Shown: positions 7,042 through 29,440 of the stretch, piece after piece
Layout of the letters: each line of letters begins with the position of its first letter
Position numbering within the stretch: the first letter of the stretch is position 1
Source: a virus
Taxonomy: Duplodnaviria; Caudoviricetes
Strand: one strand, 5' to 3'
Length of the DNA stretch: 33,260 bases
Virus record (IMG/VR): IMGVR_UViG_3300028629_000440
Location: 1 to 33,260 of that record
Notes under the pieces: generated by a model
Told to the model about the DNA's origin: nothing
The model's database searches: none
What the model saw: only the letters and a program-made list of their open reading frames with translations
Position numbers and translations under genes: made by a program

Positions 7042-7087
7042 TGGCTCCCCATGTCGGCTCCGAACCAATGGCCTACTGGTTAACAGC
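7042..7087 (-). pseudogene. 3' half of tRNA-Asn(GTT), probable attachment-site duplication
   Basis: Minus strand GCTGTTAACCAGTAGGCCATTGGTTCGGAGCCGACATGGGGAGCCA: anticodon loop CTGTTAA, GGTTCG T-loop, GGA-G-CCA end. No 5' half upstream, and the T-stem is imperfect. Confidence 0.75.
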
Positions 7088-7209
7088 GGGCACATGAATC
7101 TAATCCGGCATTGGCCGCGATCCATAGCCCTCGAGTCATCCGTCCGCCCGCAATCGCTGCCGGGAGCCGTTGACATTTCTTCGTTCCAGAGGGAGCGCAT
7201 CAAATCCAC

Positions 7210-7271
7210 TTGGGGCGCTATTGGGGCCGACTTGAGGGCCTCATAGGGCTTCCCTCGCCCAGTTCATGCTC
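7210..7271 (+). repeat. module-boundary repeat, R arm
   Basis: 50/62 identical, ungapped, to 9072-9133. Confidence 0.9.
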
Positions 7272-7550
7272 AGTACCCGATTTTAGCACTGCCTTCGTCC
7301 TGGCAATCGTCGACCTCGTTCTGCTGCCGATGCTATCTAGACGATGAGGGGGTGGCATGATCCCAAGCGAACCACAAGATCAGCCGCGTCGTCCCACACG
7401 CATGGCACTCGCCCGCCGCTCACTTGAAATCACTCTCATACTTGATTATAAGCCCACTTGCCCGATAGGTGGTTGGTGGATAGCCGCGAGCATGCGTGGA
7501 GTCTAGATGGACCTAACCATTGGGGAGTGGCGACCAGGAGGGAGACTAAC

Positions 7551-8279
7551 GTGGCACAAATGTTCGAGGACGAGAAGAAGTTTCCGGACAATTCATCGCG
7601 GGCGAACTTTGTATTCCTCGGGTACCCACACAAGCCACCGCTTGCCTTGGACGACTACCGATCAGTAACTCGGGAGCTTGAGCAAGAACTACCCATCCGA
7701 CTCTGGTACTTCCTTGATGAAGTCACGACGCAGGAGATGATGCGCAAAGTGTGGCGAGCGATCCTACGAAGCAATCTCTGCTTCTTTGACATTTCAGGCG
7801 GCAACCCCAACGTGGCCCTTGAGTTGGGCATGGCGGTGGCGATTAACAAGCCGTGCCTGACGCTGCTAAAGACCGGCGAAGCAAATCCGCTCGGCGACGC
7901 AGATATGAGTTATGCCGAGCGAGCGGAGTATCAATCCCGCGAGACGCTCAAGACGAAGCTTCGCGAACTGTTACGGACAAAATGCGCCGCGATGAGGATT
8001 CTCAACGAGGTCTCCTATCAGATTCAGAGCGCCCAGTTCCCTTATGCCCGAGACGAAATTGAGAGGCGCCTTGCACAAGCAGTGTCTCAGGTATTCTTGG
8101 CTAAGCGCACAACTCGCGCAGCAATGGCAAAGGTGTTCGGGTCAGATGAGGCGGCCGGCACAGTCTTGAACGCTTTTCGTGAACGAGGAGTATTCAAGCT
8201 TGAAGGCCAACGAAGAGCGGCGAAATGGCTCCTCGGAGATTCATGGGTTCATCACGATCATGAGGTCGTCGGGGCGTGA
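7551..8279 (+). CDS. nucleoside 2-deoxyribosyltransferase/TIR-like domain + C-terminal winged HTH
   Basis: VFLGYP...ILRSNLCFFDISGGNPNVALELGMAVAINKP signature with the putative catalytic Glu. C-terminal TRAAMAKVFG..AAGTVLNAFRERGVFKLEG wHTH pattern. GTG start at 7551 with GGAG RBS. Confidence 0.75.
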   Translation: MAQMFEDEKKFPDNSSRANFVFLGYPHKPPLALDDYRSVTRELEQELPIRLWYFLDEVTTQEMMRKVWRAILRSNLCFFDISGGNPNVALELGMAVAINKPCLTLLKTGEANPLGDADMSYAERAEYQSRETLKTKLRELLRTKCAAMRILNEVSYQIQSAQFPYARDEIERRLAQAVSQVFLAKRTTRAAMAKVFGSDEAAGTVLNAFRERGVFKLEGQRRAAKWLLGDSWVHHDHEVVGA

Positions 8280-8333
8280 GCGAGAACACCGGGGGACACC
8301 GTGGGGCGATCAGGCATTAGAATCGCTGCAGGC

Positions 8334-8361
8334 TTGACGAGGGCGGTCATATAGCGAGAAT
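8334..8361 (+). promoter_or_regulatory. sigma70-like promoter of 8402..9025
   Basis: TTGACG-N16-GAGAAT. Confidence 0.45.
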
Positions 8362-8401
8362 CCAGTTGCTTCGCACGACCAGAGGATTGAAGGACGCGTA
8401 A

Positions 8402-9025
8402 ATGACGAGAGTAGTACTAAATGTTCAGAAGCTCCAATATGTCCGGGCATGGGAATATGTTAGCCGACTTGTCGAAGTGCGTGATCGCAAATACACCGTG
8501 GACGGGAAGGACGTCTGGGACTTTGCTGAAGTGGGCACAGGCACCACATGCGTCATGGCATCGCTGGGATCTCCAGAGGAACCCGAGTTCTGTGTTAACC
8601 CCTTAGCAGACATCTACACAGCGATAGACGCAATGCACCGTAGCGCTGTGACACTACTCTTGCGTCAGCCCTGTTGGAGGCAATCCAGGCCACCCAAAAG
8701 TTACATGTCCATCTATCCGGCATGGTTCCAAGTGACCACGAATGCCCAGCATGATAAGGACTTGCAGAGAGATTTGAGCGACCTCTTTGCGGCAGGCAAT
8801 GGCTTATGTGGGCATCCTAGCTCAGACAAGCCTCTGGCGGTAACATACGGGGGATTCCTAATCCCTAAGGGGCAGGACTCCCAAGAGACCTTCTTGGTTG
8901 ACATCGTCGCTGTAATTCGTTTCTTCCGGGCATTGACCAAGCTATGGCGCGATGTGCTCAGAGCGAGAGGAATGGACCCTATCGAGAATCCCGAGCAACA
9001 TGAACACTTGGTTGATGTCGAGTAG
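8402..9025 (+). CDS. hypothetical protein, possibly degenerate HEPN-like
   Basis: 207-aa ORF with AAGGA upstream. Helical pattern, with motif LSDLFAAGNGLCGHP. Confidence 0.6.
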   Translation: MTRVVLNVQKLQYVRAWEYVSRLVEVRDRKYTVDGKDVWDFAEVGTGTTCVMASLGSPEEPEFCVNPLADIYTAIDAMHRSAVTLLLRQPCWRQSRPPKSYMSIYPAWFQVTTNAQHDKDLQRDLSDLFAAGNGLCGHPSSDKPLAVTYGGFLIPKGQDSQETFLVDIVAVIRFFRALTKLWRDVLRARGMDPIENPEQHEHLVDVE

Positions 9026-9040
9026 CACTAAGCGCGGCCT

Positions 9041-9133
9041 GCGTCGTCTCCGAAAACATCCTCATTTCTCGTTGGGGCGCTATTAGGGTGGACTCGAGGG
9101 CCTCGGAGGGCTTCCTACGCCCAGTGTCCGCTC
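9041..9133 (+). repeat. module-boundary repeat, complete L-core-R copy
   Basis: 9041-9078 matches 20641-20678 (33/38). 9072-9133 matches 7210-7271 (50/62). The overlap is TTGGGGC. Confidence 0.9.
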
Positions 9134-9153
9134 CTTCCCGGAAGACGAAACAC

Positions 9154-10170
9154 TCATATTGGGTTGGTCTTTCGGTCCTGACAAGCGATGCCATCCCACT
9201 TGACAACGTAAGCCCAGCTAGCGCCAGCTCCTTGACTATATGTGGGGTTGTAAGCCTTTGGCTGTGTATAGTAGATTCCAGCGTCTCGCTCTATCGCGTA
9301 GAGCGCCATGCCCAAAGTGATTGGCTTGGGGCCGAACGGAGCAAGAGTCAATCCGTTAGCCCGTGATTCCCATTGCTCTCGCAGTACATGATATGTTCTG
9401 TCTGCGTCCCATGTAGCGATCATTTCAATATCCTCACGGCGAATCGCACTATCTGCACCACCTGTAGCTTCATAGAGCGTCTTCCAGCATCTTCGCGAGA
9501 AAGCTCCGTCGGGAGGAAAGGGCATGATTACCTTAGTTGAGCCAGCATCTCTATCATAGATCTCCTTCATAAGTGACGATATGCGCAACATTTCAAATCC
9601 TACACTCAAGACCAGAGTGTTCCCCTTGGGTTGCAGTTGTGGGGCAAACCCAGGCAGATGATCAGGCGTCATGGGATCCTCAGCTAGATGCCCTGAAGCA
9701 TATCCACCTGGAGCGCTCTCGGTATAAGTGACCACCATACCTCGCACTGCCTGGTCTGCCAGCAGCCTCTTCAGATAGAAACAGAAGAACCGCTTAGGAA
9801 AACAGGAGATGTCAAGAACAACCACATTGCTGCGGATAGACTGTAGCAGTTCCGCCGTGGAGGCCAGCAAATCGTCTTCTGTTGCCAATAACTTGGCGTG
9901 CGAGATCTTGACATCCGGCCGAAACCTTCTGCTTTCCTGCTCCTTCGAAGCGATGCGTGGAGCTCTTGCTTGGCTGTAGTCGGGAGTTGCATCAATCGGG
10001 TCATCAACACACACCAACTGTAGTGAAACGCAATCCGATGCAGGGCCGCACAGCAACTGTGGAACGTGGCAGCAACGGTCTTCGAAAGAAAGACACCCTA
10101 TAACATCATAGGGAGTTTGTCGAAGGAATACGGAGCCAATGTCTTTGAGCTGTCCCCATGGCATTCGCAC
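9154..10170 (-). CDS. tandem Rossmann-like (CARF-like?) partner of the PRTase/ORC-CDC6 operon
   Basis: Motifs GCLSFEDRC, VVLDISCFPKRFF, VLSVGFE, LAPFGPKP, YYTQPKAY. GAGGTG RBS. Starts 9 nt after the ATPase stop. Confidence 0.75.
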   Translation of the reverse strand: MRMPWGQLKDIGSVFLRQTPYDVIGCLSFEDRCCHVPQLLCGPASDCVSLQLVCVDDPIDATPDYSQARAPRIASKEQESRRFRPDVKISHAKLLATEDDLLASTAELLQSIRSNVVVLDISCFPKRFFCFYLKRLLADQAVRGMVVTYTESAPGGYASGHLAEDPMTPDHLPGFAPQLQPKGNTLVLSVGFEMLRISSLMKEIYDRDAGSTKVIMPFPPDGAFSRRCWKTLYEATGGADSAIRREDIEMIATWDADRTYHVLREQWESRANGLTLAPFGPKPITLGMALYAIERDAGIYYTQPKAYNPTYSQGAGASWAYVVKWDGIACQDRKTNPI

Positions 10171-10179
10171 TGTAACACC

Positions 10180-12297
10180 TCACTCGAAGAGCCGCAGCTG
10201 TCTGGCATCATCTTCCTGAAGCGGTCGGACCTGAGACGCGGGCCTCCTGGCTCCACCAAACGTGATCTTGGCATTACAGAAGATCCAGTCGTGAAGCTCG
10301 TCGACCGATACGTATCTTGGCTCTTTGATGCGCTTGTATGGAATATTGAAATACGCGCATAATAGTGGATGCAAGAAGAACTTCCGTCTACGGGCAGATT
10401 CCTGCAGTTTGGATGTGTGTGCGCGCTCCTCGAAAATGGCCCAATTTACCCCATCCTCAAGAAAGCGGAGTGCCCGAACGCCCTTCTCTGAAACGCGAAG
10501 ATCAGACTCGCGAAGCGAGAACCCTGTGAACCCTGGATTGGATATTGCCAGATCGGACTTCAGGTAGTTGCAGACGGCGGGTCCGATCCGACTTAGGAAT
10601 GCATACCGCATGCTTCCGCCGGTGTTCTCATTCCGGTCACGGTTGAACCACTTCTCCGATGCCATGGCTATGCCACTTGTCTGCACGAGAGGGCTGATGG
10701 GGCGCGACTCTACGGGGTGCTCTCCACGCCGGCATGCCACATCCCACATTTCCCCAAGCAGCAACAGGAGCGCACTAATGTTTCCCCCCGATAGGTACAG
10801 CGTAGGCTCCCATCCGAAATACTTCTTCTTCTGGTTTGCCATAGAGGCCAACTGGAGCAGCGCGACGTCTACACGCTCCTTCTTCCATGACCATCGCAGC
10901 CAGGGGCGCGAATCAATGTTCTTCTCAATCCTCTTGCGTGGCTCCCCGCGAGCGACACGCTGCAGAACCCACGCGCCAGCAAGCCGCAGTTCCACACCAG
11001 AACTGTCACGATCTACTAACTTAGCTAGACGTCGGCGGATCACTTCCGGAACGCCCTTGAGTGCGAGTGTATCACGACGCTTGATTACGGAGAAGTAGTG
11101 TGTCGCCTCGACGTCGCGACTCCACCCCCCCAGGATGCTGCTAACTTGATTCTGCTGCAGATTAGAGTATCCCTTAGCCTGCAGTCGCTTGTACGTGACG
11201 TCAAGAGCGAACTTCGGAAATAGCCATCTGCGCCCATCTTCGTCCCGCATCAGCAAGTCGGTCAGATTTATCAGCGAGTAGTCACGGTGTTCTTCAATTC
11301 GTGATTCCGCCCCCCAAATTCGCAATTCCCTGCCCCAATCGTGAGTGCGCGCGCCCAGTTTGTGGAATACGTACGGGTCCCGAGCCTTGATCAGAGTGTT
11401 AACAACTCGCTGTAAAGCCGTGCCATGCACAGCGTTGAGTTCGGAGAGCACTTCATACTGATCGAGAACCACAAAGAGCCTCAGCTCCTTCGATGAGATA
11501 TGTGCCAGCAGCGCCCCCATCTCGCTAAGAGGGTGTTCTGGCGACTCCTTGGAAGCCCAGATGCTCCTTGGTATCTTGTCAATATCAGTGTTCAGGAACT
11601 GCCGCCAGGTATCAAGACGCCCCAAAGCAGTTCTGAGCAGCGCGCGCAAGGTCCTTGCCTGACGATAGTAGTCATACCATCGCCCCCAGCCTCTGAACAG
11701 CTTGACCAGCTTCTGCTCATTCCGAAGAAGTCTGGGGGGAATCCCCATCCAGGCACACATCGCAGCGCTATCCGCTTGCTGCAGGAACTGAATCCCTGTC
11801 AGAAATTCACGGAAGAGGAAGTGAGTCAAGAAGTCAGCGGCACACATGGCGTCCAGACTAGGATCAGCCTGTCCTGACATTGCACGCGATACAGACCTAC
11901 GTCCAAACGTATGGAACGCCGTTCGGACTAGGTTAATGGAAATACCCATATACGGTGGGCAAGTCCTGAGCGCCTTAGGTGGGGATTCTGCGCCAGTGAA
12001 CCACTCCGAAAGAACCTTTGTCCTTATCAAATTCAGGATCATTGACTTGCCGCAGCCTTGAGGCCCGATAAGGATAACATTGCTCGGCTTGAATGCCTGC
12101 AGTGTCTCGCCAACCAGGATCTCTTCGCTAAACATTCGCCTGTACCGCCCCGGAGTTTCGATCAATTCGCTCACCAATGGGTCGTGAAACGGATTCCCAA
12201 GTCTGTGCTCCTCCATAGAAGCGCCTGCTGGGCCAAGATTCGGCTCTTTGGCAGAGCTGTTGTTGGAGGCAGGCAAAGCACTTGTGGTCTTGTTCAT
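10180..12297 (-). CDS. ORC/CDC6-like (STAND-related) P-loop ATPase
   Basis: N-terminal NPF, Walker A GPQGCGKS, Walker B FVVLDQYE, LSGGNIS helix motif, C-terminal wHTH-like FFLHPLLCAYFNIP. Start chosen at ATG 12297, 1 nt after the upstream stop. Confidence 0.85.
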   Translation of the reverse strand: MNKTTSALPASNNSSAKEPNLGPAGASMEEHRLGNPFHDPLVSELIETPGRYRRMFSEEILVGETLQAFKPSNVILIGPQGCGKSMILNLIRTKVLSEWFTGAESPPKALRTCPPYMGISINLVRTAFHTFGRRSVSRAMSGQADPSLDAMCAADFLTHFLFREFLTGIQFLQQADSAAMCAWMGIPPRLLRNEQKLVKLFRGWGRWYDYYRQARTLRALLRTALGRLDTWRQFLNTDIDKIPRSIWASKESPEHPLSEMGALLAHISSKELRLFVVLDQYEVLSELNAVHGTALQRVVNTLIKARDPYVFHKLGARTHDWGRELRIWGAESRIEEHRDYSLINLTDLLMRDEDGRRWLFPKFALDVTYKRLQAKGYSNLQQNQVSSILGGWSRDVEATHYFSVIKRRDTLALKGVPEVIRRRLAKLVDRDSSGVELRLAGAWVLQRVARGEPRKRIEKNIDSRPWLRWSWKKERVDVALLQLASMANQKKKYFGWEPTLYLSGGNISALLLLLGEMWDVACRRGEHPVESRPISPLVQTSGIAMASEKWFNRDRNENTGGSMRYAFLSRIGPAVCNYLKSDLAISNPGFTGFSLRESDLRVSEKGVRALRFLEDGVNWAIFEERAHTSKLQESARRRKFFLHPLLCAYFNIPYKRIKEPRYVSVDELHDWIFCNAKITFGGARRPASQVRPLQEDDARQLRLFE

Positions 12298-12298
12298 C

Positions 12299-13300
12299 TT
12301 AGGCCTCTTGATGTTCCAGGCGACGGAACAATGGATTCCACTGTGGCGCGATCCTGTGAAGGATATGAATGGAGTTGTTTGGTGCATTGTGAGCTGTTAC
12401 AAGGATGGCGCCAGCCCCTCCATGGCCAAAGGGATCTGAAGCCGCCGGACTGGACTTGTGCGCCTTCCTGCGCACTCTGTCCCACGATGACAGGATGAGA
12501 GCACGAAGGGGCGCAAAGTCCTTGTGTTCTGGCAAGACAGGTCTTGCTCGCACGGTGGCAGTCTTGGGGATAATGATAACAGGCCTGATGTCGATACCAG
12601 GCAATGCATTACGCAGTCTCACATACCCATCTTCCATTGCGATCAACGGAGAGAAGAGAACGCGCTGCTTAGAAGTGATTGTTGCCCGCACCGTTTTGAG
12701 GACATCTCTGCATTGCTGCCCACAGCCAACGAAATCTTCAAGAACGATGGCTCCTAAGTCAGTCTTGCGCGTAAATCTCGTCACCATTTCCCGAGCAACC
12801 GTGGCAACCTCGGTAAGCTGGCGCCCTCTCCGAAGACAACTCAAGGAATTCACGCGCTCAAAGGTGTTATAGTCGAAACTGTTGGTCACGTAGAACAGCC
12901 GGTATCTACAAACAAGCCGCACTGTCTTGCGTGCGTAATCAGGTGACAGCAGGTCTGATGTGGTGCATGTGCCATTCCAGACCCACGGCGATATTACACT
13001 CCTGAATACGTCGCGATATAAAGACGCGATTTGAGAGATGTCTACGAACGTCATGTGTCTAAGTACGGAGAACAGGATCTTCTTCTCTGCATCACTGGCA
13101 ACATTGTTAAGCCATGCCAGGAGGCGCGAGAAGAACGGCGGGCCTTCGGATCTGAATGGCATATAGTCCTCGAAGCGAAGGTCGGCATGATACTCTAGTT
13201 CTTTGAGTTCCTCCAGGAAGGAGGGCTCGCTGGAAGGCTCAAAGCTATCACTCGTCCATCCACTGATCAGCTTCTCAAGTTCTGCTCGTGCGTTGGCCAT
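12299..13300 (-). CDS. phosphoribosyltransferase-like conflict effector (PRTase-CE type)
   Basis: PRPP-loop IVLEDFVGCGQQ. N-terminal LLAWLNNV. C-terminal PFGHGG..ILVTAHNAPNNS...WNPLFRR. Start chosen at ATG 13300. Confidence 0.8.
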   Translation of the reverse strand: MANARAELEKLISGWTSDSFEPSSEPSFLEELKELEYHADLRFEDYMPFRSEGPPFFSRLLAWLNNVASDAEKKILFSVLRHMTFVDISQIASLYRDVFRSVISPWVWNGTCTTSDLLSPDYARKTVRLVCRYRLFYVTNSFDYNTFERVNSLSCLRRGRQLTEVATVAREMVTRFTRKTDLGAIVLEDFVGCGQQCRDVLKTVRATITSKQRVLFSPLIAMEDGYVRLRNALPGIDIRPVIIIPKTATVRARPVLPEHKDFAPLRALILSSWDRVRRKAHKSSPAASDPFGHGGAGAILVTAHNAPNNSIHILHRIAPQWNPLFRRLEHQEA

Positions 13301-13310
13301 GACGTCGTCC

Positions 13311-14474
13311 CTACGTGCGATTCTTGCGCGCAATGAAAACTCGCTCAACTATCCGCGCCTTGCGGTGTCCGTTCGAGTCACTCAGCGCGTTGAAGTACCT
13401 GAAGCCGCTAGGGACGGTGTGTGCAAAGATATTGCATACCCTTAGGCCGATGTTGGCATTTCCTCGAAGCATCGATGACAGGAGCTCTCCCGTCCGAAAC
13501 GACCGCACGGTCCGAGGGCTTCTGGCCATCTTCCTGCGCACATCACCCGCTATGCATATGAGCACACCTCCAGGGCGGAGCATTCGTGCCAGCTCGAAGA
13601 AGATCTTAGACATATGCTCTCTATAGGCTGAGATGCTCCCTGTCTGAATGTATCGTCCTCGGATCTGTTTGTGGTCATATCCCAAGAGCCATAGTCTAAG
13701 CCAGTTGTCCTTTGCATATGTCTGCGCATTCAAATATGGTGGTGACGTCAGAATCACATCCACTTTTCCGCGGAGACGCGGGAGCAGGGAGTAGACGTCG
13801 CTGGCAGAGCCCTGAACGACGTGCCCCTTGACTGGGGGTGGCATGCCATCGGACAGTGCGCGAGCAATCTTCTTTGCTATGCAATCCCTGACATCTCGGA
13901 CTGGCCTGCGAAGGCCATGACTGCGCGAGTACTTCCGTACGTATCGGGCGGACATCGAGAATGCATGCGCGCAGGGGAGCGATAGCGAATATGAAGCGTG
14001 ACCGTGGAGGATGCCTAATAGGCACGCCAATGCGAAACATGCGTTGCTCCGGAGATGGGGATCGCTCGATGATGCGTCACGGACCAAGGCGTCCCGAACG
14101 GAAAGCATGCGCCCGAGAGTAACCTTGTGATAGAACACCTTGACATCTGATGGTACCGAGTCAACCGCTCGTTCCCTCTGTCTAAGCGAACGCACATAGT
14201 CAATTGCGCCCTCGGCGTTCACTGCAAGCATCTTAGCCTGCGAACAGATCACCGCCTCAGGTGCAACGTCAATACCGTACGCGCTCATGCCCAGTAACCT
14301 TGCGGCCAGCAGTGATGTCCCTTTGCCGCAAAAGGGATCTAGGATCACAGGCTTGTCTGGGGCATAATCCTTAAGAAGATCGACCGCAACCGTGAGGGGA
14401 AACGACCCGGTACGCGACATTATTGACTGCAGGGGGTGCCGTCCGAGTAGTTGCAGGTGTTCCGATCGCTTCAT
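13311..14474 (-). CDS. amino (N4-C/N6-A) DNA methyltransferase, alpha motif order
   Basis: Motif I ILDPFCGKGT near the N-terminus. Motif IV VILTSPPY near the C-terminus. RMLRPGG motif. Confidence 0.9.
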   Translation of the reverse strand: MKRSEHLQLLGRHPLQSIMSRTGSFPLTVAVDLLKDYAPDKPVILDPFCGKGTSLLAARLLGMSAYGIDVAPEAVICSQAKMLAVNAEGAIDYVRSLRQRERAVDSVPSDVKVFYHKVTLGRMLSVRDALVRDASSSDPHLRSNACFALACLLGILHGHASYSLSLPCAHAFSMSARYVRKYSRSHGLRRPVRDVRDCIAKKIARALSDGMPPPVKGHVVQGSASDVYSLLPRLRGKVDVILTSPPYLNAQTYAKDNWLRLWLLGYDHKQIRGRYIQTGSISAYREHMSKIFFELARMLRPGGVLICIAGDVRRKMARSPRTVRSFRTGELLSSMLRGNANIGLRVCNIFAHTVPSGFRYFNALSDSNGHRKARIVERVFIARKNRT

Positions 14475-14511
14475 GCCGGCCTCGAAGTGGCGCCATTACC
14501 GCAATGAGCGA

Positions 14512-14539
14512 ATATTAGTTCCAGCCGCAGCATTGTCAA
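14512..14539 (-). promoter_or_regulatory. promoter of the MTase-PRTase operon
   Basis: Minus strand TTGACA-N16-TAATAT. Confidence 0.6.
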
Positions 14540-14644
14540 CGTGCACGAAGGGCGCGTGCTAACATGCCCGCAGGGCGTGGGGCAAACACCTCCAGAGCCG
14601 GTGGGCGGCAACCTCATGCCCCGTGTGGCCAGGCCAATGATTGG

Positions 14645-14700
14645 GCTTTGATCCCAAAGCATGACTGTGGCCTTGACCCCCAAAGGTCAAAGCATATCAT
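14645..14700 (+). promoter_or_regulatory. promoter of the TerB operon with operator-like palindromes
   Basis: TTGACC-N16-TATCAT (14673-14700). Inverted repeats TTGACC-N6-GGTCAA (14673-14690) and GCTTTG-N4-CAAAGC (14645-14660). Confidence 0.55.
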
Positions 14701-14775
14701 TCTTCACCAGTTGGTCTTGCGCCGGCGATACCATACTAGCCCTTCGCGTGATCTCAAGACCGGCGCCGGGGAGGA

Positions 14776-17064
14776 ATGGCCTTGAAGTTCTCCTGCGGCA
14801 AGTGCGAAAGACTCTTCCCAGAAGAAGCCTTGGTGGCAGATCCCCAAGGAGGCCCCGACATATGCCCGGCCTGTCTGTCACGCGTTGCTGACAGGCAGAA
14901 TCCCGTTGGTCCTGCAGTCCGCAAAGGCGAAAGCGGAGCCCTCGGTACAGCTCGAACACCAAGTGTGCAGGTGCGTGTCGGCGTTACGCCTCAGTTTGTC
15001 GGACAAGGACAATCGATAGCAGTTGCTGGGTATTCGCTTGCCGATCCGCTCATCTACGTTGCCGATTGCACAATCAACTCGCACTTCGATGCCAGCTTGT
15101 TGTGTTTGAGAAGGCGCATTGATCCGCCGCAACCCGAGCCCCCTAAGTCACTCGGCTACTGGCCGCAGCTCGGCGAACTGAAGCCCTATCAAGTCGGGAT
15201 ATATCTTGAATGGCTTGCTGGCGGCCGAAACGATCCGAATGTGGATATCGGATATGTGTTTCTCTACTTCTATGGGCTTGAGCGGCGCAGTGTGGTTGAC
15301 GGCCAGGACATTGTTGCCATTGGATACGAACTTCTCCGGCTACTGAACACGTATGGTGCTTCAAGGTCCTTCCGGGACTACGCCACTAGCCTACTTATCC
15401 ACCTAGTACTGACCAATCGTCTCAGACCGACCACCAAGCTGATATCGAAGCTCCTTGACCATCAGGACAACCACATTAGCAGTCAACTACTAGCAATGCT
15501 TCTAGGCCATCTTGCGAGGGAACGGAAAGGACTTCCAACCGACTGGGCCTTGCACTTGGCTAAGCAGGATGAGCGGGCCGTAAGGAGCGTAGTAGCCGCC
15601 ACCGTGCCAACAGAACTCATGAAGCTTTTCGGCAAGAAATATGAGAAGGAGTATGGAGATGGGCTGGTCCCACAGCTTAGCGGGGGCACAACCAGCGTCG
15701 AATACCGACCGGCGTCACCGACACTACTCCCAATAATGTGGACTGGCAAGAGGATACTTGCCGAGGAGTGGCCGACGATTATTGGATGGAGGCACCAGTT
15801 TTCAGGAGTTGTCGGCTGCTACAATGAGTGCATTGAAGAACTGAGATCGTATGCAAGGAAGACCAAGACCAGCGGGAAAGACTCGCCACTATCCTACGAA
15901 GCTTTGCCCGCGGCATTGCGGACTGAAACGAAGCACCCTCTGCAAGACGCATGGGATGCCCTCATTGCAGAGTTTGCCCCGGAGAAAGGCCCCATTCTGC
16001 TTCCGATATCGCGTCTTGCCCAGGCCAGAGGCATCGCAAAACGTCCGAAGCTGACGGCTAGTCAGGCTTCCTCCTTGGCAGAACTCGCCGAAGCACTGGG
16101 AAGCGCATTGGAGCCAGATCCTCGATATACGAGAAAGGCCTACACCTGGAATCAGAATGTAGCAGTACTTAGACTTCCAGATAGACCTCTAGTTCCCAAT
16201 GGGCAGAACTATGCGGCGGCAACCATGGTCTTGCGATTGGCACTCGAAATAGCGTCCGCGGATGACACGGTTGATAATAATGAGCGCCAAGCGATAGCCT
16301 CCTTCCTTGCAGAACGTTTCTCTCTTTGTCGTAATGATTGCCTACGACTGGAAGCCTTGATCGCATTGAATGTTGAGGAAGAGTCGTTGCTCGCTGGGCT
16401 AAAGAAGAACCTGGCCAGCTTCGCCGCAGAGCAACGAGAAGCAGTCGCTCGTTTCCTGGTGGAAATCGCTGCCGTTTCGGGTGGTGTAGTGAGTGCAGAA
16501 ATCAAGGCCCTGGAGCGAACGTTCGCCGTCTTGGGTCTGCCGCGTCCACTCGTGATGACGTATCTCCAGGAAATGGGACTGGTCGGTGGTGATACCCCAG
16601 TTCTCGCTCAGCGCGCGACATCGGATTCTGGTGGAGAGCGCATCCCGTCGAGACCACTGGTACTAGACCTGGAGAAGATTCGCCAGAAGCGCCAGGAAAG
16701 CGAGGAAGCGGCAAGGATGCTAGTTTCGGTTATGACGGCCACGGCCGTTGCAGAGGAGGAGCCGGAGGAAGTCTCGAGCCCCGCCAGAGTCAGTACTGTC
16801 GTGGAGCCCGAATCGCGAGATGGGGACACGCTCCATCAACTGGAGGCTTCCTTGCGTGCAGTCTTGTCTGAAGTAGTCGAAAGGCCAACGTGGCCCCGTG
16901 TCGAATTGGATGAGATTGTCAGGAAGCACGGGTTCATGCGCGCCGCAGCTATCGACAGGCTCAATGAGTGGTCGGACGAGCAGTTTGGTGATTTCCTGCT
17001 CCAAGACGGAGACCCTGTGGTCGTGAGCCAGGACATCGCCAGGAAGATCAGGGGGAACTCATGA
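14776..17064 (+). CDS. TerB_N-TerB-TerB_C protein with N-terminal zinc ribbon
   Basis: TerB_N signature LGYWP..YLEWLAGGRNDP..DIGYVFLYFYGLERR. TerB IASADDTVDNNE. TerB_C LDLEKI...AIDRLNEWSDEQFGDFLL. N-terminal CGKC...CPAC. Confidence 0.9.
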   Translation: MALKFSCGKCERLFPEEALVADPQGGPDICPACLSRVADRQNPVGPAVRKGESGALGTARTPSVQVRVGVTPQFVGQGQSIAVAGYSLADPLIYVADCTINSHFDASLLCLRRRIDPPQPEPPKSLGYWPQLGELKPYQVGIYLEWLAGGRNDPNVDIGYVFLYFYGLERRSVVDGQDIVAIGYELLRLLNTYGASRSFRDYATSLLIHLVLTNRLRPTTKLISKLLDHQDNHISSQLLAMLLGHLARERKGLPTDWALHLAKQDERAVRSVVAATVPTELMKLFGKKYEKEYGDGLVPQLSGGTTSVEYRPASPTLLPIMWTGKRILAEEWPTIIGWRHQFSGVVGCYNECIEELRSYARKTKTSGKDSPLSYEALPAALRTETKHPLQDAWDALIAEFAPEKGPILLPISRLAQARGIAKRPKLTASQASSLAELAEALGSALEPDPRYTRKAYTWNQNVAVLRLPDRPLVPNGQNYAAATMVLRLALEIASADDTVDNNERQAIASFLAERFSLCRNDCLRLEALIALNVEEESLLAGLKKNLASFAAEQREAVARFLVEIAAVSGGVVSAEIKALERTFAVLGLPRPLVMTYLQEMGLVGGDTPVLAQRATSDSGGERIPSRPLVLDLEKIRQKRQESEEAARMLVSVMTATAVAEEEPEEVSSPARVSTVVEPESRDGDTLHQLEASLRAVLSEVVERPTWPRVELDEIVRKHGFMRAAAIDRLNEWSDEQFGDFLLQDGDPVVVSQDIARKIRGNS

Positions 17065-18365
17065 TCATCAAACCACGCGAGAAGACGGCCATTCTGCAGA
17101 GCCTCGCTGCTGGCGTTGTGCCGAAGATTGGTCTCCATCTGATCCAGGTCGGCAGGAAACGGGAACTTGAGGCCCTGATTGCCAATCTCATGGCCATCGA
17201 GGATGGTGGCGCAGCGTTCAGGTTTGTGGTGGGCCCTTTCGGAAGCGGGAAGACCTTCTTCCTAAACTTAGTCCGCACGGTTGCCATCGAGCGGAAGTTC
17301 GTAGTGCTGCAGGCAGACATTACTTTGGAGCGCCGGCTGCACAGTACGGGCGGACATGCCCGCGCTTTGTACACGGAGCTAATCCAGAACATGTCCACGA
17401 AGGCCAAACCAGAAGGCGGGGCGATGCCTGGCCTTGTCGAGCGCTTCATTTCCGACATTCATCGGGAAATGGGCGCGAGCTCAGATGCCGCCGCACTGGA
17501 GAAGGAGATCGGTAAGCGCCTGCAGCCGCTTCTGGATATGACTCACGGGTCGAACTTTGTTCGAGTGTTGGCGCGCTATGTTGAGGGATTTGCTTCTCGA
17601 AATGACACCCTTACCAACGCCGCTGTGCGATGGCTGCGCGCCGAGTACACGACCAAGACCGAGGCGCGAGGGGATCTCGGCGTCCGCGACATTGTTGAGG
17701 ACGCACATCTATTTGACATGCTCAAGCTGTGGGCGAGCTTCATCCGCATCGTAGGATATAAGGGCCTTTTCGTGAACATCGATGAGATGGTGGTCCTGTC
17801 TGAACGACTCAACAATGCGGCTTCTCGCGACAAGAACTACGAGGTAATCCTGCAGATGCTTAACGCCTGTTTGCAGGGCAATGTCTGTGGGCTGGGGTGT
17901 TGTCTTGCAGGCACGGACTCTTTTCTGTCAGACAGGCGGCGAGGCCTCTTCAGCTACGAAGCGCTGGCAACCCGCCTCGCGGACAATCCGTTTGCGACCG
18001 CAGGGGCGGCTGACATGAAAGGCCCGGTAATCAAGCTTGATCCTCTTACTCGGGAAGATCTGTTCGTGCTCCTCGAGAGAATTGCCCGAGTTCATGCCGG
18101 CAGTGACGAGGCTAAACCCTTGGTAGATCACGATGGCATTATGAAGTGCATGACCTTTTGCGAAAAACGCCTGGGGGCACAGCACTTCTTGACCCCACGG
18201 GACACGGTCAAGCAGGTTGTCGGGCTTCTCAACGTCATGGAGCAGAATCCAGGAAGGAGTCTGGAATCATTCCTGCAGATCGATGAGCCACCGGCTGCGC
18301 CTCAGCAGCCCGCAAAGCTGGATGGTCCTCAAGACACTGACTCGTTGGCCAAGTTCAAGCTCTAG
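17061..18365 (+). CDS. DUF2791 (BrxD-like) P-loop ATPase
   Basis: ILQSLAAGVVPKIGL..IQVGR start, Walker A GPFGSGKT, Walker B VNIDEM, SYEALATRL. ATGA-coupled to the TerB gene. Confidence 0.92.
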   Translation: MIIKPREKTAILQSLAAGVVPKIGLHLIQVGRKRELEALIANLMAIEDGGAAFRFVVGPFGSGKTFFLNLVRTVAIERKFVVLQADITLERRLHSTGGHARALYTELIQNMSTKAKPEGGAMPGLVERFISDIHREMGASSDAAALEKEIGKRLQPLLDMTHGSNFVRVLARYVEGFASRNDTLTNAAVRWLRAEYTTKTEARGDLGVRDIVEDAHLFDMLKLWASFIRIVGYKGLFVNIDEMVVLSERLNNAASRDKNYEVILQMLNACLQGNVCGLGCCLAGTDSFLSDRRRGLFSYEALATRLADNPFATAGAADMKGPVIKLDPLTREDLFVLLERIARVHAGSDEAKPLVDHDGIMKCMTFCEKRLGAQHFLTPRDTVKQVVGLLNVMEQNPGRSLESFLQIDEPPAAPQQPAKLDGPQDTDSLAKFKL

Positions 18366-18368
18366 CCT

Positions 18369-20606
18369 ATGGCTACCGCCTTCGAAAGGCTGCACCCTCA
18401 CATTCAACACGTCCTATGGGACATGAAGTGGGAGACGCTACGCGATCTGCAGGCCAAGGCCATCGATGCATGGCTTGAGAGGAAGAACGATATCATTCTC
18501 ATGGCCAATACCGCCTCAGGCAAGACCGAAGCTGCCTTCCTGCCTATCCTATCGACATTGGCACCTGACCAGGGCGCCGGTTCCATCAGGGCCATGTACG
18601 TCGGTCCACTCAAGGCGTTGATCAACGACCAATTCAGACGCCTGGAGGATTTGTGCAAGCGCGCCGAGATTCCGGTGCATCGCTGGCACGGCGATGTCGC
18701 TGCCGGAGATAAGAAAGCACTCCTGGAGGCTCCTTCGGGTGTGCTATTGATCACCCCTGAGTCACTGGAATCATTACTCGTGCGTCATGGCCGTGATGCT
18801 CAGCGGCTTTTTGCGCGCTTGGAAGCTGTTGTTATTGACGAGTTGCACGTGTTTCTTGACAGTGAGCGAGGACGACAGCTCTCAAGCCTATTGGCGAGGG
18901 TTGATGAGGCCAGAGGAGGCCTTCGCACGAGGCGTGTGGCCCTGTCGGCAACCATCGGAGACCTCCGCATTGCACAGGAATGGATTACTGATGGGGATCC
19001 GGCCCAATCAGTGATCATACAATCGAACGCATCTCGCGACGTGGAACTGATGCTGAAAACGTTCATCTCCGAGCCGGCTACCGCGAGCATGAAAGTCGAA
19101 GCTGGCAGCGACATGCCGTCGGAGATGGCACCCGTAGCCGATAATGAAGGTGACGGCCTGCTATCCATCGCCGAACACATCATGAATCACTTCTCAGGCA
19201 GTACAAACCTTGTCTTCTTCAACCGAAAGATGGAAATAGAAATTTGTGCCGACTTCCTGAGGCGCCTTTGCGAGAGATCACACAAGCCCAACGAATTCCT
19301 GGTGCACCATGGCTCTCTAAGCAAAGACCTTAGGCTCTACGCGGAGAGGGAGTTACAGTCGGGCCGCCCGTGCACAGCACTCTGCAGCAGCACACTGGAA
19401 CTTGGCATTGACGTGGGCTACGTAGACACTGTCGGTCAAGTCGGGCCGCCACACTCGGTGAGTGCGCTGAAGCAGCGGTTGGGACGCAGTGGGCGCGTGT
19501 CGGGCCGGCCCTCCCGGCTATGGATGTACGTTTCCGTTGAACGTCAGTGCCCTTCTGCTCCACTTCCGGACCGGCTGTACCTGCCGCTCTTGCAGGGAAT
19601 TGCCTTAGTCGAACTCATGCTGGATAAGTGGGTCGAACCTCCCACAGTTCATGGCTCGGACTTGAGCACCCTCATCCAGCAGATTCTGGCAACGATAGCA
19701 CAGAAAGGCGGGGCCCCTGCGACCAGGCTATACGAGGCCATCAATAGGTCCTATGCGTTCAGTAAGATAGGCCAGGAGGCGTTTGCCCAGGTACTCAGAG
19801 ATATCGGTGCTGCCGACCTGATCGAGCAGGTGGCTGATGGCGACCTGATTCTGGGCATCGCCGGTGAGAGGCTAACAAGCCACTATGACTTCTACGCAGC
19901 ATTCGAGTCTCCGGAATCATATGAGGTGCAGCACGCAGGTCGTGCAGTTGGCAGCATTGAAGCCGTAGAAGGATCATATGAGCCCGGACAGTATCTCCTG
20001 CTCGCTGGCAAGCGCTGGCGGATTCTGGAAGTCGATGAGAAGCGCAAGGTCATAGTCGTAGAGCGAGCGCACGGCAAGGGGGCTGTCCGTTGGTCCGGAG
20101 GAGGCGGGCATGTCCATCGGCGCATTCGCGAGAAGATGCTTGAACTCCTGACATCGGAAAGCATTCCTCGCTGGCTAGAGCCCAACTCGATTGAGGTGCT
20201 GTGCTCCGCCCGGGAAGCCGCTAAGGCCTTTGCCTTGGCCAATACACGAATGGGGGTGGAAGGTGATCTTCTTCATCTCTTTACGTGGACAGGCTCTCGT
20301 GGGCAAACAGTCCTGAAGCTTGCCCTGTCTCTTGCTGGCCTTGATGGGGTGCTGGACTTTGGCGCTGGTCTCACGATCCCATCGAGAGCCACCAGTGAGG
20401 ACCAAGTGCGGAGAGCACTCCGCGACTTCGTCGCCTCCGAGCCGAACGCCGATCAGATGGTGTTAGCGGCATTCAGGAATGCACTGCCAAAGTCCGGCAA
20501 GCACGGTGAGTATCTTTCAGGACCACTGCGTGCAAGCACTTACGCATCAGCCAACCTCGATGTGAAGGAGGCAATGACCGCCGCACGCGCCATCCTGGCA
20601 ACGTAG
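18369..20606 (+). CDS. Lhr-like DEAD/DEAH SF2 helicase
   Basis: TASGKT, PLKALINDQ, TPESLE, DELH, SAT, HHGSL, STLELGIDVG, QRLGRSGR. Confidence 0.95.
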   Translation: MATAFERLHPHIQHVLWDMKWETLRDLQAKAIDAWLERKNDIILMANTASGKTEAAFLPILSTLAPDQGAGSIRAMYVGPLKALINDQFRRLEDLCKRAEIPVHRWHGDVAAGDKKALLEAPSGVLLITPESLESLLVRHGRDAQRLFARLEAVVIDELHVFLDSERGRQLSSLLARVDEARGGLRTRRVALSATIGDLRIAQEWITDGDPAQSVIIQSNASRDVELMLKTFISEPATASMKVEAGSDMPSEMAPVADNEGDGLLSIAEHIMNHFSGSTNLVFFNRKMEIEICADFLRRLCERSHKPNEFLVHHGSLSKDLRLYAERELQSGRPCTALCSSTLELGIDVGYVDTVGQVGPPHSVSALKQRLGRSGRVSGRPSRLWMYVSVERQCPSAPLPDRLYLPLLQGIALVELMLDKWVEPPTVHGSDLSTLIQQILATIAQKGGAPATRLYEAINRSYAFSKIGQEAFAQVLRDIGAADLIEQVADGDLILGIAGERLTSHYDFYAAFESPESYEVQHAGRAVGSIEAVEGSYEPGQYLLLAGKRWRILEVDEKRKVIVVERAHGKGAVRWSGGGGHVHRRIREKMLELLTSESIPRWLEPNSIEVLCSAREAAKAFALANTRMGVEGDLLHLFTWTGSRGQTVLKLALSLAGLDGVLDFGAGLTIPSRATSEDQVRRALRDFVASEPNADQMVLAAFRNALPKSGKHGEYLSGPLRASTYASANLDVKEAMTAARAILAT

Positions 20607-20640
20607 TCATTCATGTCCCGACTGCGCAATCGCGTGGTCG

Positions 20641-20678
20641 GCATCGTCTCCGCAAGCATCCTCATTTCCTGTTGGGGC
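20641..20678 (+). repeat. module-boundary repeat, L arm
   Basis: 33/38 identical, ungapped, to 9041-9078. Confidence 0.88.
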
Positions 20679-20833
20679 CACGGCCCGTCCACCATCGAAG
20701 ACTTAGGTTCCGAGCCAGCTGGTTTGTGGCAGTGTGCGGTAACACCATATTGATCCCGAGGCTATCGACACAGCCGGACGCAAGTAGTTCGTCAACGGCC
20801 TTGGCCTCTGCACTATTCAGACATGCACATGCC

Positions 20834-20842
20834 TGCTATGAT
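20834..20842 (+). promoter_or_regulatory. extended -10 promoter of the endonuclease gene
   Basis: TG-c-TATGAT, about 35 nt upstream of ATG 20877. Confidence 0.35.
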
Positions 20843-20876
20843 TTGGGTCTCTTCGTGGGCGGGAAAGGGAGACCTG

Positions 20877-21737
20877 ATGAAGCCAGACCATCGCTTTCAA
20901 GATCTGCCGAAGGCTTTCTGGGCCAACGTCAGGGCCATCAGCCAAGTCGTCGGCTATACGGCGAGCGGCAAGTCCAAAGGCAGGATTAAGATTCCCGATC
21001 TTGCCGAGATGTGTGCGGCACTGAGCGATACGGGTCTTGAATGCACGCACATAGTGAAGAACTGCCAGCCCACACCGATTGGCAAGCTTCTCCACGACTA
21101 CTTCCACTACCGCGCGGAGACGCTCAACAGCTATGTTGAGCCGCGGCTGATGGATGCAAATCGGGCGCGGGACACGTTTCAGAAGCTACGCGCCGAGTTG
21201 AACCCGGGATGTCCGTTGCCGATGAACAAGCAGAAGGGTGCCAAGAAGGCCTCCGCGTTCCTCACCGGCATCGTAAACATGCTGATAGAGACTAATGCCG
21301 CCGGCCTGCCGTGCGACTTTGAGCCGCGCAAGTTGACCACCGTCACCCGAAACGGAGAACTGCTGCGGACGTTTGCCAGATGGGTTGACGGCGCATTCCC
21401 CTCCACCGTCAATCCCGTGGCAGTCTGGGAGATCAAGGAATACTACTACACCACCACCTTTGGGTCTCGCGTTGCGGACGGGGTCTACGAATCCCTCCTG
21501 GACGGCATGGAAATCGAGGAGCTTCGGGAACATGAGGGCATCGACATCAAGCATTATCTGATCGTCGACGCCCACTACACATGGTGGGAGTGTGGCCGGT
21601 CATACCTCTGCCGCTTGATGGACATGTTGCACATGGGTTACGTTGATGAGATTCTGTTCGGGTACGAGACTGTAGAGCGGCTACCGGAAATAGTCAAGGA
21701 GTGGGTGGTCGCTGCACAAGCCAGGCAGGATCAGTAA
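20877..21737 (+). CDS. putative type II restriction endonuclease (PD-(D/E)xK)
   Basis: VDGAFP...VWEIKEYYY catalytic pattern. Adjacent to an MTase. GGGAG RBS before ATG 20877. Confidence 0.8.
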   Translation: MKPDHRFQDLPKAFWANVRAISQVVGYTASGKSKGRIKIPDLAEMCAALSDTGLECTHIVKNCQPTPIGKLLHDYFHYRAETLNSYVEPRLMDANRARDTFQKLRAELNPGCPLPMNKQKGAKKASAFLTGIVNMLIETNAAGLPCDFEPRKLTTVTRNGELLRTFARWVDGAFPSTVNPVAVWEIKEYYYTTTFGSRVADGVYESLLDGMEIEELREHEGIDIKHYLIVDAHYTWWECGRSYLCRLMDMLHMGYVDEILFGYETVERLPEIVKEWVVAAQARQDQ

Positions 21738-22636
21738 GTCAGCAGCAACCTGTCAGCCACAACCTCGTTCTCGAGGCTTTGGCCCTCCATCTGAAACCTC
21801 TTCAACATGCAGCGGCCCGTGGTGACAAGCACTTCTTCCTCAAATAGACCCTCAGGTATCGGCAGATCGCAGAGTTTCCTCCCGGAGCCCTTGGTGCCGT
21901 CAATGCTGAGGGCCACGTAGACCCCTCGGGACTTGCAGCCTGCGATGACTTCGAACAGGTGTCTCAGATCGAAGGACTGGGCGCCGTAGAGAATCGTTTG
22001 ACTATGGCTGTAGGGAGGATCGCAGTAGACCATGTCGCCGCTTTGTGCGCGGGACATTGCTTCCTGGTAGTCCATCCGCTCGAACTGCGCACCGGCAACG
22101 CGCTCATGCCACAGGTCTACCCTCTGAGCGAACTTCTCAGGTGAGATCGGTTCGTGCACACCGCATGGCGTGGAAATGTGCCCATCTGCCTGCCGAAAGC
22201 GGACAACCCCGCCATAGCAGGAACGACTTAGAAACAGCAGGTCCGCGCCGTTGGGCCTAGCGTTATAGGCAGCCTTGACCTGTTCGTAGGCCGCTTCCTT
22301 GGAGGACTTGGCCATGCCCCGCCATCTCTCGGCATACCATGCTTTGAGTTCCTCGGGGCGGTTCTTCAATGTTGCCCATATCTCCATCAATGGGGCAAAG
22401 GCGTCAGAGCCAAGACCGTTCTCTGGCCTCAATGTTGCGAGAACGGCCCCGGTTCCGAGGAAGGGTTCATAGTACTTACCGAAGTTCGCAGGAAAGAAGG
22501 ACACTATCTCGTGGGCGAATCTCTGTTTGTTGCCTACCCACTTGAGCAACTGAGACTTGAAGGGCACTACCATATGCCCAGGCCTACCGAACATGGTCAT
22601 CTGTGCCACTTCGGCTGAATCGGTCCGTGTGCGCAC
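21731..22636 (-). CDS. Dam-family (D12 class) N6-adenine DNA methyltransferase
   Basis: LKWVGNKQR, YYEPFLGTGAV, VYCDPPY. GTG 22636 with AGGAG chosen as start (uncertain). Convergent 7-nt overlap with the REase. Confidence 0.92.
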   Translation of the reverse strand: MRTRTDSAEVAQMTMFGRPGHMVVPFKSQLLKWVGNKQRFAHEIVSFFPANFGKYYEPFLGTGAVLATLRPENGLGSDAFAPLMEIWATLKNRPEELKAWYAERWRGMAKSSKEAAYEQVKAAYNARPNGADLLFLSRSCYGGVVRFRQADGHISTPCGVHEPISPEKFAQRVDLWHERVAGAQFERMDYQEAMSRAQSGDMVYCDPPYSHSQTILYGAQSFDLRHLFEVIAGCKSRGVYVALSIDGTKGSGRKLCDLPIPEGLFEEEVLVTTGRCMLKRFQMEGQSLENEVVADRLLLTY

Positions 22637-22807
22637 GCCCTCTCCTCTCACGCTGATCCTACTCGCGTTCCGAGCGTTGTTCAACTGGTCTTTCGCGCCC
22701 TGGCCTGGAACCGGGAGGTATGTGCGGAGGAGCGTACTACCACGCATTATCATGCTCTTCGGTCTCAAGCATAACGATGGTACGGCAGGATCGATGGCTT
22801 GAGCGGT

Positions 22808-23863
22808 TCACACGTACTCAAACCCCAGCTTCACCATTAGCCCATACATGTGGAAACCGAACTCCGTCCTCCCCGTGGAATAGTAGGTAGCATCGGCTGG
22901 CCGGAAACTGTCGAGATTCGGCGGATACGGGATGATCGCCGGCGAATAGGCTGGGATCACGCCCTTGGCTGGCGGTGCGATGTCCAGGATCATCGTTCCG
23001 TAGCGGAACCAGAAGTAGGTCTCGTCATACAGCGGGATTCCCGCTGGCTGGCCCGCCTGATAGGCGTAGTCGACACCATTCAACCGCACGGTGACGGTGA
23101 ACTCGCCTTGTGTCTTGGTCCACCGCTTGGCGATGTAGACGGGCATCTTGGCTGCCACGATGTCAGGCGCGTAGTTGGGCAGCGGCGCAGCCGCTGCGAA
23201 GGCCCCCGCATCGCTCCACTCGATACCGTATGACAGGCTCCCAGAGAGGCTGTAGCTCTGCAGCAGAAATGATGGGCCTGAACACGCACTGGAGAGCCTG
23301 GACGTGCGTGGCGCCGCGTTCCAGCTTGACTTGGCATTGGCCCATGCAGTGCTCCAGGCCGCACCGAATCCGTAGCCGGAACGACGGTATAGCAGTCCGG
23401 AGAGGTCCATGCAGCTACCCACCGGTCGGAGCCACAGCAGATTGGCCACGGCGTCGCGAACCTCGTTGACGTGGACCGCCTTGATCTTTGTCGCAGGGGT
23501 GCCGGTATACGACTCCTCTCTCTTGCCCACCAGCACCGGATCGGTCCAGTCGCTCTGGCCGATGAACCGTGACAAGAACCCTTCTTTGCCCAGGCCAACC
23601 TGCCACGCCAGTCCAGTGTCAGGATCGTAGTAGTAACTGAGCAGTGTCTCGACGGCCTGGCGCAGCGCACGCATGTTCTCGACAAGGATCTTCTCGTCCT
23701 TGGCCACGAGGGCGAGCGGCGAGATGGCCAGTCCATAGGTGGGGTTGGCTGCAAGGATTCGCTCGTTCACCGCCTCGACAAGCTGGTTCCAGCCACATAG
23801 CCGCTCAGCGTCGGCGTAGATCACCGTCTCCTGGGCGACGGCAGGCCAGCCGGTGAAGCCCAT
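22808..23863 (-). CDS. prophage distal tail / putative receptor-binding protein
   Basis: Last gene of the tail run. ATG 23863 lies just after the upstream stop. KIKAVHVNEVRDAV motif of the type seen in virion proteins. Aromatic, beta-rich C-terminus. Confidence 0.6.
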   Translation of the reverse strand: MGFTGWPAVAQETVIYADAERLCGWNQLVEAVNERILAANPTYGLAISPLALVAKDEKILVENMRALRQAVETLLSYYYDPDTGLAWQVGLGKEGFLSRFIGQSDWTDPVLVGKREESYTGTPATKIKAVHVNEVRDAVANLLWLRPVGSCMDLSGLLYRRSGYGFGAAWSTAWANAKSSWNAAPRTSRLSSACSGPSFLLQSYSLSGSLSYGIEWSDAGAFAAAAPLPNYAPDIVAAKMPVYIAKRWTKTQGEFTVTVRLNGVDYAYQAGQPAGIPLYDETYFWFRYGTMILDIAPPAKGVIPAYSPAIIPYPPNLDSFRPADATYYSTGRTEFGFHMYGLMVKLGFEYV

Positions 23864-23871
23864 GGTCGCGC

Positions 23872-24465
23872 CTACTGGTAGACGATCTCGGACGTTTCCC
23901 CGCCGCCGCCCCCACCGCCGGCCGGGAATCGCACGAGCGCCCACCCCTCGCCGGGGCTGTTCTCGGCCCACAGTATGGCCGCGGTGCCGTCCTTGGAGCT
24001 ACGCAGGCTCTCCGGGCCGTCGCCCACGTCGGCGAACTTGTCCACGTCCTCCCCTTCCTCGGGCTCGGCAATGATGAGCCTTACCGGGGTGATGCCTACA
24101 GCCAGCGCCCGGGCAAGCTTCCCGCCCTTCACCGGTTCCATGAGGACTACGAAGCGTCCCTTGTGGACGTCGGCTGCCGGCGTCACGCCGATCAGTGCCG
24201 GCCGGTTCTTGAACTCGTCGAGGTTGTCGGAGGGGCCGAAGATCGGACCATCGACGCCCAGGATCTCGAAGCGCTCCCGGTCTGCCCCGCTGTCGTTCCG
24301 GACCAACACCACACCGCCAGGCAGCGGAGCGGCCTTCGCGGTCGACGTCTGGTCTCTCTGCCGACGCTTGAAGTCCACCGCGGCGTCGATGAAGGCGTTA
24401 TAGGCCCCGGCCGGGATGCGCAGGCTCTCGCCCGGAGCGACCTTGCGGAGCGCATCCCCGGCCAC
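23872..24465 (-). CDS. prophage minor tail protein (hypothetical)
   Basis: LRKVAPGESLRIPAGAYNAFIDAA...VLVRNDSG. Position in the tail operon, strong host-like codon bias. Confidence 0.75.
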   Translation of the reverse strand: MAGDALRKVAPGESLRIPAGAYNAFIDAAVDFKRRQRDQTSTAKAAPLPGGVVLVRNDSGADRERFEILGVDGPIFGPSDNLDEFKNRPALIGVTPAADVHKGRFVVLMEPVKGGKLARALAVGITPVRLIIAEPEEGEDVDKFADVGDGPESLRSSKDGTAAILWAENSPGEGWALVRFPAGGGGGGGETSEIVYQ

Positions 24466-24468
24466 GGC

Positions 24469-27215: not shown

Positions 27216-27218
27216 GGG

Positions 27219-28258: not shown

Positions 28259-28277
28259 GTTCGGCCTCCTTCCTCAG

Positions 28278-28984: not shown

Positions 28985-28991
28985 CCTCCTC

Positions 28992-29429: not shown

Positions 29430-29440
29430 GCGTTGTCCTC

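Follow-up and report, generated by a model that had tools for sequence, protein, structure and literature searches.

Repeats bordering defence modules in a virus record are likely leftovers of stacked, decayed tmRNA-type integrative elements

We analysed the whole of virus record IMGVR_UViG_3300028629_000440 (33,260 bp, referred to below as the window), which carries a block of defence genes of low G+C (GC) content that is punctuated by three related repeats, copies A, B and C (Table 1). All three are intergenic and lie at module borders: copy A precedes a small first module, copy B separates this module from a PRTase-CE operon and the Shango genes, and copy C follows the Shango genes. An earlier note on this DNA had described the copies as X-core-R, L-core-R and L-core-Y, with TTGGGGC as the common core, L and R as shared arms and X and Y as unshared flanks, and had proposed a new system for loading defence cassettes. 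The repeats do derive from site-specific recombination sites and do mark tandemly stacked defence modules, as the note had suspected. However, they are likely what is left of decayed islands that had stacked up, rather than a new site for loading cassettes, because they copy the attachment arm of integrase elements that target the transfer-messenger RNA (tmRNA) gene. For comparison we used Planctomycetota metagenome-assembled genomes (MAGs), namely the host MAG, G004, and G005-G007. These were chosen through a protein of the gene array at the left of the window, which has a 100% identical match in G004.

Table 1. Positions of the features discussed, in the window unless another contig is named
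Feature	Position	Strand	Remarks
HEAT-repeat/lipoprotein gene array	1-6644		GC 0.64; left flank of low-GC block
Decayed 3' half of tRNA-Asn(GTT)	7042..7086	-	33/45 against intact tRNA-Asn of G004:C53
Both ends of excisionase-like (HTH_17) gene	7106..7191	-	middle of ~430 bp deleted
X	7171..7209	+	far-arm (tRNA-fragment-side) sequence that precedes the repeat pair; 39/39 against G004:C108
Copy A	7210..7271	+	heptamer pair 7210-7216, 7221-7227 and B-type tail
Module 1	7458..9025	+	weak NDT/TIR-like gene and orphan gene
Copy B	9032..9133	+	near arm without tRNA/tmRNA core: 3' half of hairpin, L spacer, heptamer pair 9072-9078, 9083-9089, tail
PRTase-CE operon	9154..14474	-	methyltransferase (MTase), PRTase-CE, ORC-CDC6-like ATPase, CARF-like gene
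Shango SngA-SngB-SngC	14776..20606	+	PADLOC E 1e-60, 1e-152, 2e-235
Copy C	20618..20678	+	near arm: complete hairpin 20618-20641, L spacer, first heptamer; second heptamer lost
Type II restriction-modification pair	20823..22768	.	low GC
Prophage tail and head genes	22808..33253	-	adjoining the stack
IS1111-type element	G004:C108 (L158) 4498-5739		IS110/IS1111 transposase gene PF02371, 5'-truncated, internally deleted

The matches on which the earlier note was built could be reproduced. Positions 7210-7271 agreed with 9072-9133 at 50/62 positions and 9041-9078 with 20641-20678 at 33/38, against best values of 36/62 and 26/38, respectively, in 200 shuffled windows; taken together, the copies are ~81-87% alike. 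Alignment of X with L and of Y with R was no better than that of shuffles (p 0.33-0.98), so the split into X-core-R, L-core-R and L-core-Y is real, and likenesses within each of these pairs that had been seen by eye were discarded as chance. A possible similarity of both X and L to tRNA-Sec was likewise rejected after a test with RF01852. In structure, TTGGGGC opens a pair of 7-bp direct repeats at an 11-bp period. The hairpin of copy C is in register with that of the tmRNA arms described below, and the copy stops after heptamer 1; copy B retains the 3' half of the hairpin only. Inverted arms around the core, another feature of the earlier description, could be found by inspection (7/9), but the reverse complement of L aligned with R at chance level (p 0.78 and 0.70). 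A fourth copy that had been suggested at 14609-14630 did not hold up, scoring 14/22 at 14610 where the mean shuffle maximum was 15. Folding revealed nothing unusual (z -1.5 to +1.7), and copies A and B contained no promoter-like site; the copy C hairpin may act as the Shango terminator. In a second assembly, Ga0302238_1000138, an 80.7-kb contig that was compared up to window position 19101, copies A and B were unchanged, and copy C fell outside the compared part.

Judged by sequence comparison, all three repeats copy the attachment (att) arm DNA that follows the tmRNA gene in integrase elements of this Planctomycetota lineage. In the element on contig C57 of G004, the tmRNA 3' end is followed by an 11-bp spacer, the hairpin, L and the heptamer pair, and behind the heptamer pair lie a PDC-M23-like defence pair as cargo, a tyrosine integrase gene (PF00589), an HTH_17 excisionase-like gene and phage-like replication genes. 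Identity to this tmRNA arm was 81% across 64 nt for copy B (E 5e-11) and 82% across 39 nt for copy C. The element on G006:C80 has the same arm, equally far from its tmRNA, with 8.8 kb of different cargo and an integrase end that is 89% identical. L-core-R is contiguous 3' of the tmRNA in both of these intact elements, with the heptamer at +69, and in both the arm and the integrase are separated by the cargo. The cognate tyrosine integrase, which faces the target gene in the relatives, is absent from the window, where we found no integrase, serine recombinase, tmRNA fragment or far-arm body; the lack of a local recombinase had been noted correctly before. None of the three copies was accompanied by a tmRNA or tRNA 3' fragment or a far-arm body.

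The motif is rare, being detected in 4 of 61 relatives and 3 of 401 genomes of the phylum. Clear copies were confined to G004-G006, with three in the 6-Mb host MAG and one each in two sister MAGs, all of them at, or at most 5 kb from, tmRNA or tmRNA-like ends. Such copy number and position refute the idea that the repeat belongs to a family of repetitive extragenic palindromes or miniature inverted-repeat transposable elements, or is a chance similarity. Although the copies are short, intergenic and GC-rich, their matches lie far above those of shuffles and their folding is ordinary, so that the probability of this explanation is negligible; the earlier note, too, had not taken the repeat for one of genome-wide occurrence. 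Lone pattern matches in G057, G299 and G029 were set aside as likely chance, and a reversed control pattern matched about as often. Viral contigs scanned with the L and R patterns yielded nothing, or only the C57 element again, the L pattern had no match in genome contigs, and blastn against phages and plasmids gave chance matches only.

The left flank of copy A corresponds to the opposite, far arm of such elements. On G004:C108, X precedes the same heptamer pair as in the window. In far arms this pair is found 150-160 bp before a tmRNA-like 3' fragment, which is a tmRNA 3' fragment in G004:C77 and a degenerate one in G004:C108. Copy A has the sequence of a hybrid between a far arm and a near arm: its positions 1-25 agree with the far arm at 22/25 and with copy B at 21/25, whereas positions 26-62 agree with copy B at 29/37 and with the far arm at 14/37. 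The tail that copies A and B share occurred in no other arm examined. Since X is far-arm sequence, the tail is that of copy B and the 25 bases between them fit both, the X-core-R arrangement is native, and the switch is not tied to the heptamer.

These contexts largely refute the circle model of the earlier note, in which circles with an attP of the form L-core-R integrated in tandem at a single X-core-Y site, with crossover at a TTGGGGC core and a recombinase of the tyrosine or serine type supplied in trans. The split layout on which it was founded is real, and copy C does end exactly at the heptamer end, which also speaks for the model. However, L-core-R, which had been taken for a circle junction, is the native arm 3' of the tmRNA, and in far arms R is the native sequence after X-core. 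The switch in copy A is not pinned to the heptamer, and there is no significant dyad symmetry. An empty X-core-Y site was not found, Y being unmatched in 61 genomes and 18 of 18 viral X-core seed matches failing to extend; we say not found rather than absent, because the collections are incomplete. The arm was also absent from 11 of 11 distant Shango loci, which is a weak test at 39-45% identity. Taken together, these results make the circles very improbable. A score of 41 for copy B in one Shango locus was rejected as a gappy match inside a helicase gene.

We predict that the heptamer pair represents arm-type binding sites of the integrase and not the crossover core. TTGGGGC would be the first of these sites, because paired repeats flanking a tmRNA core, together with a stem-loop, match the arm-type layout already described. 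In cluster K mycobacteriophages, paired arm-type repeats are reported on both sides of the tmRNA core with a stem-loop between them (PMC3203893). As in the cluster K1 attP described there, short direct-repeat pairs flank the tmRNA 3' core, a stem-loop separates this core from one of the pairs, and the repeat differs between elements. Unlike in cluster K1, the units here are of 7 bp with an 11-bp period and lie ~70 bp from the CCA end, cargo is placed between arm and integrase in two elements of the lineage, and binding is predicted.

Homologues of the integrase were present in 28 of the 61 relatives, and 17 of 30 integrase loci included a tRNA or tmRNA detected by ARAGORN. A 7-mer direct repeat at a lag of 11 (at least 6/7) was found in 11 of these 17 loci within +62..+78 of the gene end, a range centred on the two loci of the lineage that were left out of the 17. 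The neighbouring lags of 9, 10, 12 and 13 gave 0, 3, 1 and 0 loci, respectively, and the mean pair score was reached by 0 of 1000 shuffles. The sequence of the repeat unit varies between elements; the locus whose integrase N-terminus is closest to that of C57 (52%, compared to 21-35%) carries the same TTGGGGC pair. Repeat similarity tracked integrase relatedness overall (catalytic domain r 0.39, p 0.0005; matrix test). A hairpin followed by a 7-bp pair at an 11-bp period ~70 bp past the tRNA end can serve as a signature that delimits the elements of this family and their relics. The Planctomycetota integrase family (L210-L239) targets many different tRNAs in addition to tmRNA.

We consider it likely that the repeats remain from two or three tmRNA-type integrative elements that were stacked in tandem and stripped to arm and defence cargo. 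The intact element, as seen in the relatives, runs from the tmRNA 3' end through the hairpin, the L spacer and the 7-bp pair to cargo, integrase and excisionase. The strands would be exchanged within the tmRNA 3' end and not in TTGGGGC, since a tmRNA fragment is kept behind the far arm. Related elements would have integrated one after another, and deletions would have stripped each backbone and tRNA core, fusing the last cargo gene to the next arm at copies B and C. Copy A may have arisen by recombination between far-arm and near-arm repeat pairs, anywhere in the 25 shared bases, one junction being lost through this repeat-pair recombination. The defence genes were presumably retained by selection. 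With the cores lost, we predict that the modules cannot move by themselves.

The same origin of the repeats is compatible with a stack that was built by homologous recombination between the ~100-bp arms of co-resident elements, without prior tandem integration. The tail found only in copies A and B (29/37), the switch point of copy A within shared sequence and the position of cargo directly behind the arm in both intact elements are all consistent with this route. However, it leaves the joins between cargo ends and the next arm unexplained, as no homology was found there, and it would have to act on copies that are only ~81-87% alike. We therefore regard it as unlikely.

Several observations weigh against successive integration and decay as the origin of the stack. 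No intermediate comprising arm, cargo, backbone, core and next arm was seen in the MAGs compared, all of which are incomplete. The tmRNA of C57 was identified by its 93% identity to an ARAGORN-called tmRNA of G005, and was itself not called by ARAGORN. In the integrase survey, the +62..+78 range was set after looking at the loci, 6 of the 17 loci had no clear pair, and the correlation of repeat similarity with the N-terminal arm-binding region was not significant (r 0.18, p 0.075, 13 sequences). Copies B and C start 6-11 bp from a stop codon and keep L, neither of which would be required by random deletion, and the exact end of copy C at the heptamer end is poorly explained.

An IS1111-type element lies exactly in heptamer 1 of the far arm on G004:C108, whose X is that of the window. 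It has subterminal inverted repeats, a downstream non-coding region and AG at both junctions. The non-coding region contains a 9-nt complement of the right flank (equalled in 9 of 10,000 shuffles) and then a 7/8 match to the left flank, the guide order described for IS1111 seekRNAs (PMC11187229), and we predict that it encodes the guide RNA. At a related end in G005:C119 the flank differs, and the segment at the corresponding place is changed as well, complementing that flank at 7/8 by inspection. The 16-nt target predicted from these guides is matched at 14/16 in copy A and 13/16 in copy B, which are the two best sites of the window, and at 9/16 in copy C. In place of the AG core used by the element, GG is present in each of the three copies. 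A second copy of the transposase was not detected at E 1e-40 in the four MAGs.

This element weakly supports the earlier idea of a recombinase acting in trans, for which it offers a candidate. An RNA-guided IS1111-type recombinase acting on heptamer 1 could have made the hybrid junctions, either by insertion, fusion and excision or by direct guided recombination, and could in this way have turned relic att arms into cassette sites at which whole defence operons were loaded or swapped in trans. Two unrelated mobile elements would then have combined into an integron-like system guided by RNA. The position of the element, the order of its predicted guides and the ranking of copies A and B would suit such a role. 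On the other hand, the core dinucleotide differs in all three copies, copy C is a poor target, the modules lack insertion sequence (IS) ends, the sole transposase found is 5'-truncated, and the guide assignment is itself a prediction. Overall, we judge this route to be quite improbable; were it true, it would constitute a natural RNA-guided loader of defence cargo. Independently of the window, an element predicted to target an integrase arm repeat would be a parasite of the machinery by which a different mobile element excises, and a narrow literature search found no paper on an IS1111 element with an integrase arm-type attP target.

The C108 element shares subterminal inverted repeats, predicted guides, a 2-bp AG core and a recombination site as target with the IS1111-attC group as described (PMC11187229). 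It differs from that group and from ISPpu9 in targeting an integrase arm repeat, and not attC or a REP sequence, and in residing in a relative of the window. The A/B modules reported for ISPpu9 are bounded by IS ends (PMC12288879), unlike the modules of the window, which have no subterminal inverted repeats at their borders; L and R correspond to the target of the IS and not to its ends. Matches of 10 and 8 nt to the IS subterminal repeat at 7236-7245 (tail of copy A) and 20677-20684 (start of Y), noted by inspection, are probably chance.

Returning to stacked, decayed elements as the likely source of the repeats, tandem accretion with integrase-less remnants, or cis-mobilizable elements (CIMEs), is described for ICESt1-related elements and Streptococcus salivarius islands (PMC5704250, PMC7563491). 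The concept is therefore not new. Like CIMEs, which are described at 1.2-13 kb, the modules of the window are tandem, 1.9-11.6 kb in size, devoid of integrase and transfer genes and bounded by related attachment-site DNA. However, CIMEs retain attL and attR with their cores, whereas arm DNA alone is left here; we therefore speak of a CIME-like stack and not of a CIME. There is also no adjacent target gene, the parent is a phage-like Planctomycetota integrase-excisionase element, and the stack abuts prophage tail genes, the contig ending within the prophage. Integron cassettes resemble the modules in having repeats shortly past stop codons that separate defence cargo, and differ in that here no stable folding is seen, the modules contain several genes and reach 11.6 kb, and the repeat is an att arm. 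An attC single-strand hairpin was rejected on the folding z values of the three copies on both strands (-0.8 to +1.7), and neither an integron integrase nor an Rfam or attC-like match was found near the repeats. The locus is thus island growth of an already known sort, with a real repeat whose origin can be identified. On this reading it joins the known examples of defence islands that grew as integrative elements stacked and decayed, here in a Planctomycetota lineage with little sampling so far.

Among the cargo, the operon previously labelled TerB was identified as SngABC of Shango, an experimentally tested three-gene anti-phage system (10.1101/2022.11.11.516204). The NDT label of the first module has some Pfam similarity behind it, which is weak (E 0.003, under the curated cut-off), and scans with the NDT and tail genes found no relatives. 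In the operon between copy B and Shango, DNA methyltransferase-like and CARF6-like genes stand together with PRTase-CE and ORC-CDC6-like genes. The GC content is 0.57 in the block, including the restriction-modification pair, compared to 0.64 and 0.66 on either side. Since this low-GC block continues past copy C to ~22,800, Y is not a native flank, and the restriction-modification pair is likely to be cargo behind copy C. Related prophages in G005:C155 (L155 8519-11041) and G006:C54 (L165 5066-6963) carry a large serine recombinase and a DUF2924 gene near the last tail genes; neither gene is present at the corresponding place in the window.

At the left border of the block, the tRNA-Asn relic, for which Rfam and ARAGORN made no call, represents an old att scar. 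The adjoining excisionase-like relic aligned by blastn with G004:C77 in two pieces (6938-7144 and 7146-7192). Pfam assigned HTH_17 to the intact gene, and tblastn of both relic ends was weak. Positions 6926-7041 are repeated in the host MAG (C53 and C77), and the second assembly, which starts there, agrees with the C77 variant at 10 positions that differ from the window, so that it may be uncertain how the left array is joined to the defence block. The genes of the left array have a common N-terminal segment, present in four copies, and a 57-nt promoter-like unit at 2388, 3933 and 6678 (minus strand) recurs on several G004 contigs. The gene at 5921-6555 is 97% identical in G005:C149 while the G004 locus departs at 5920, which suggests that the array is variable gene by gene. 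An imperfect inverted repeat of 37 bp lies at 6839-6913, in a conserved region downstream of tRNA-Asn.

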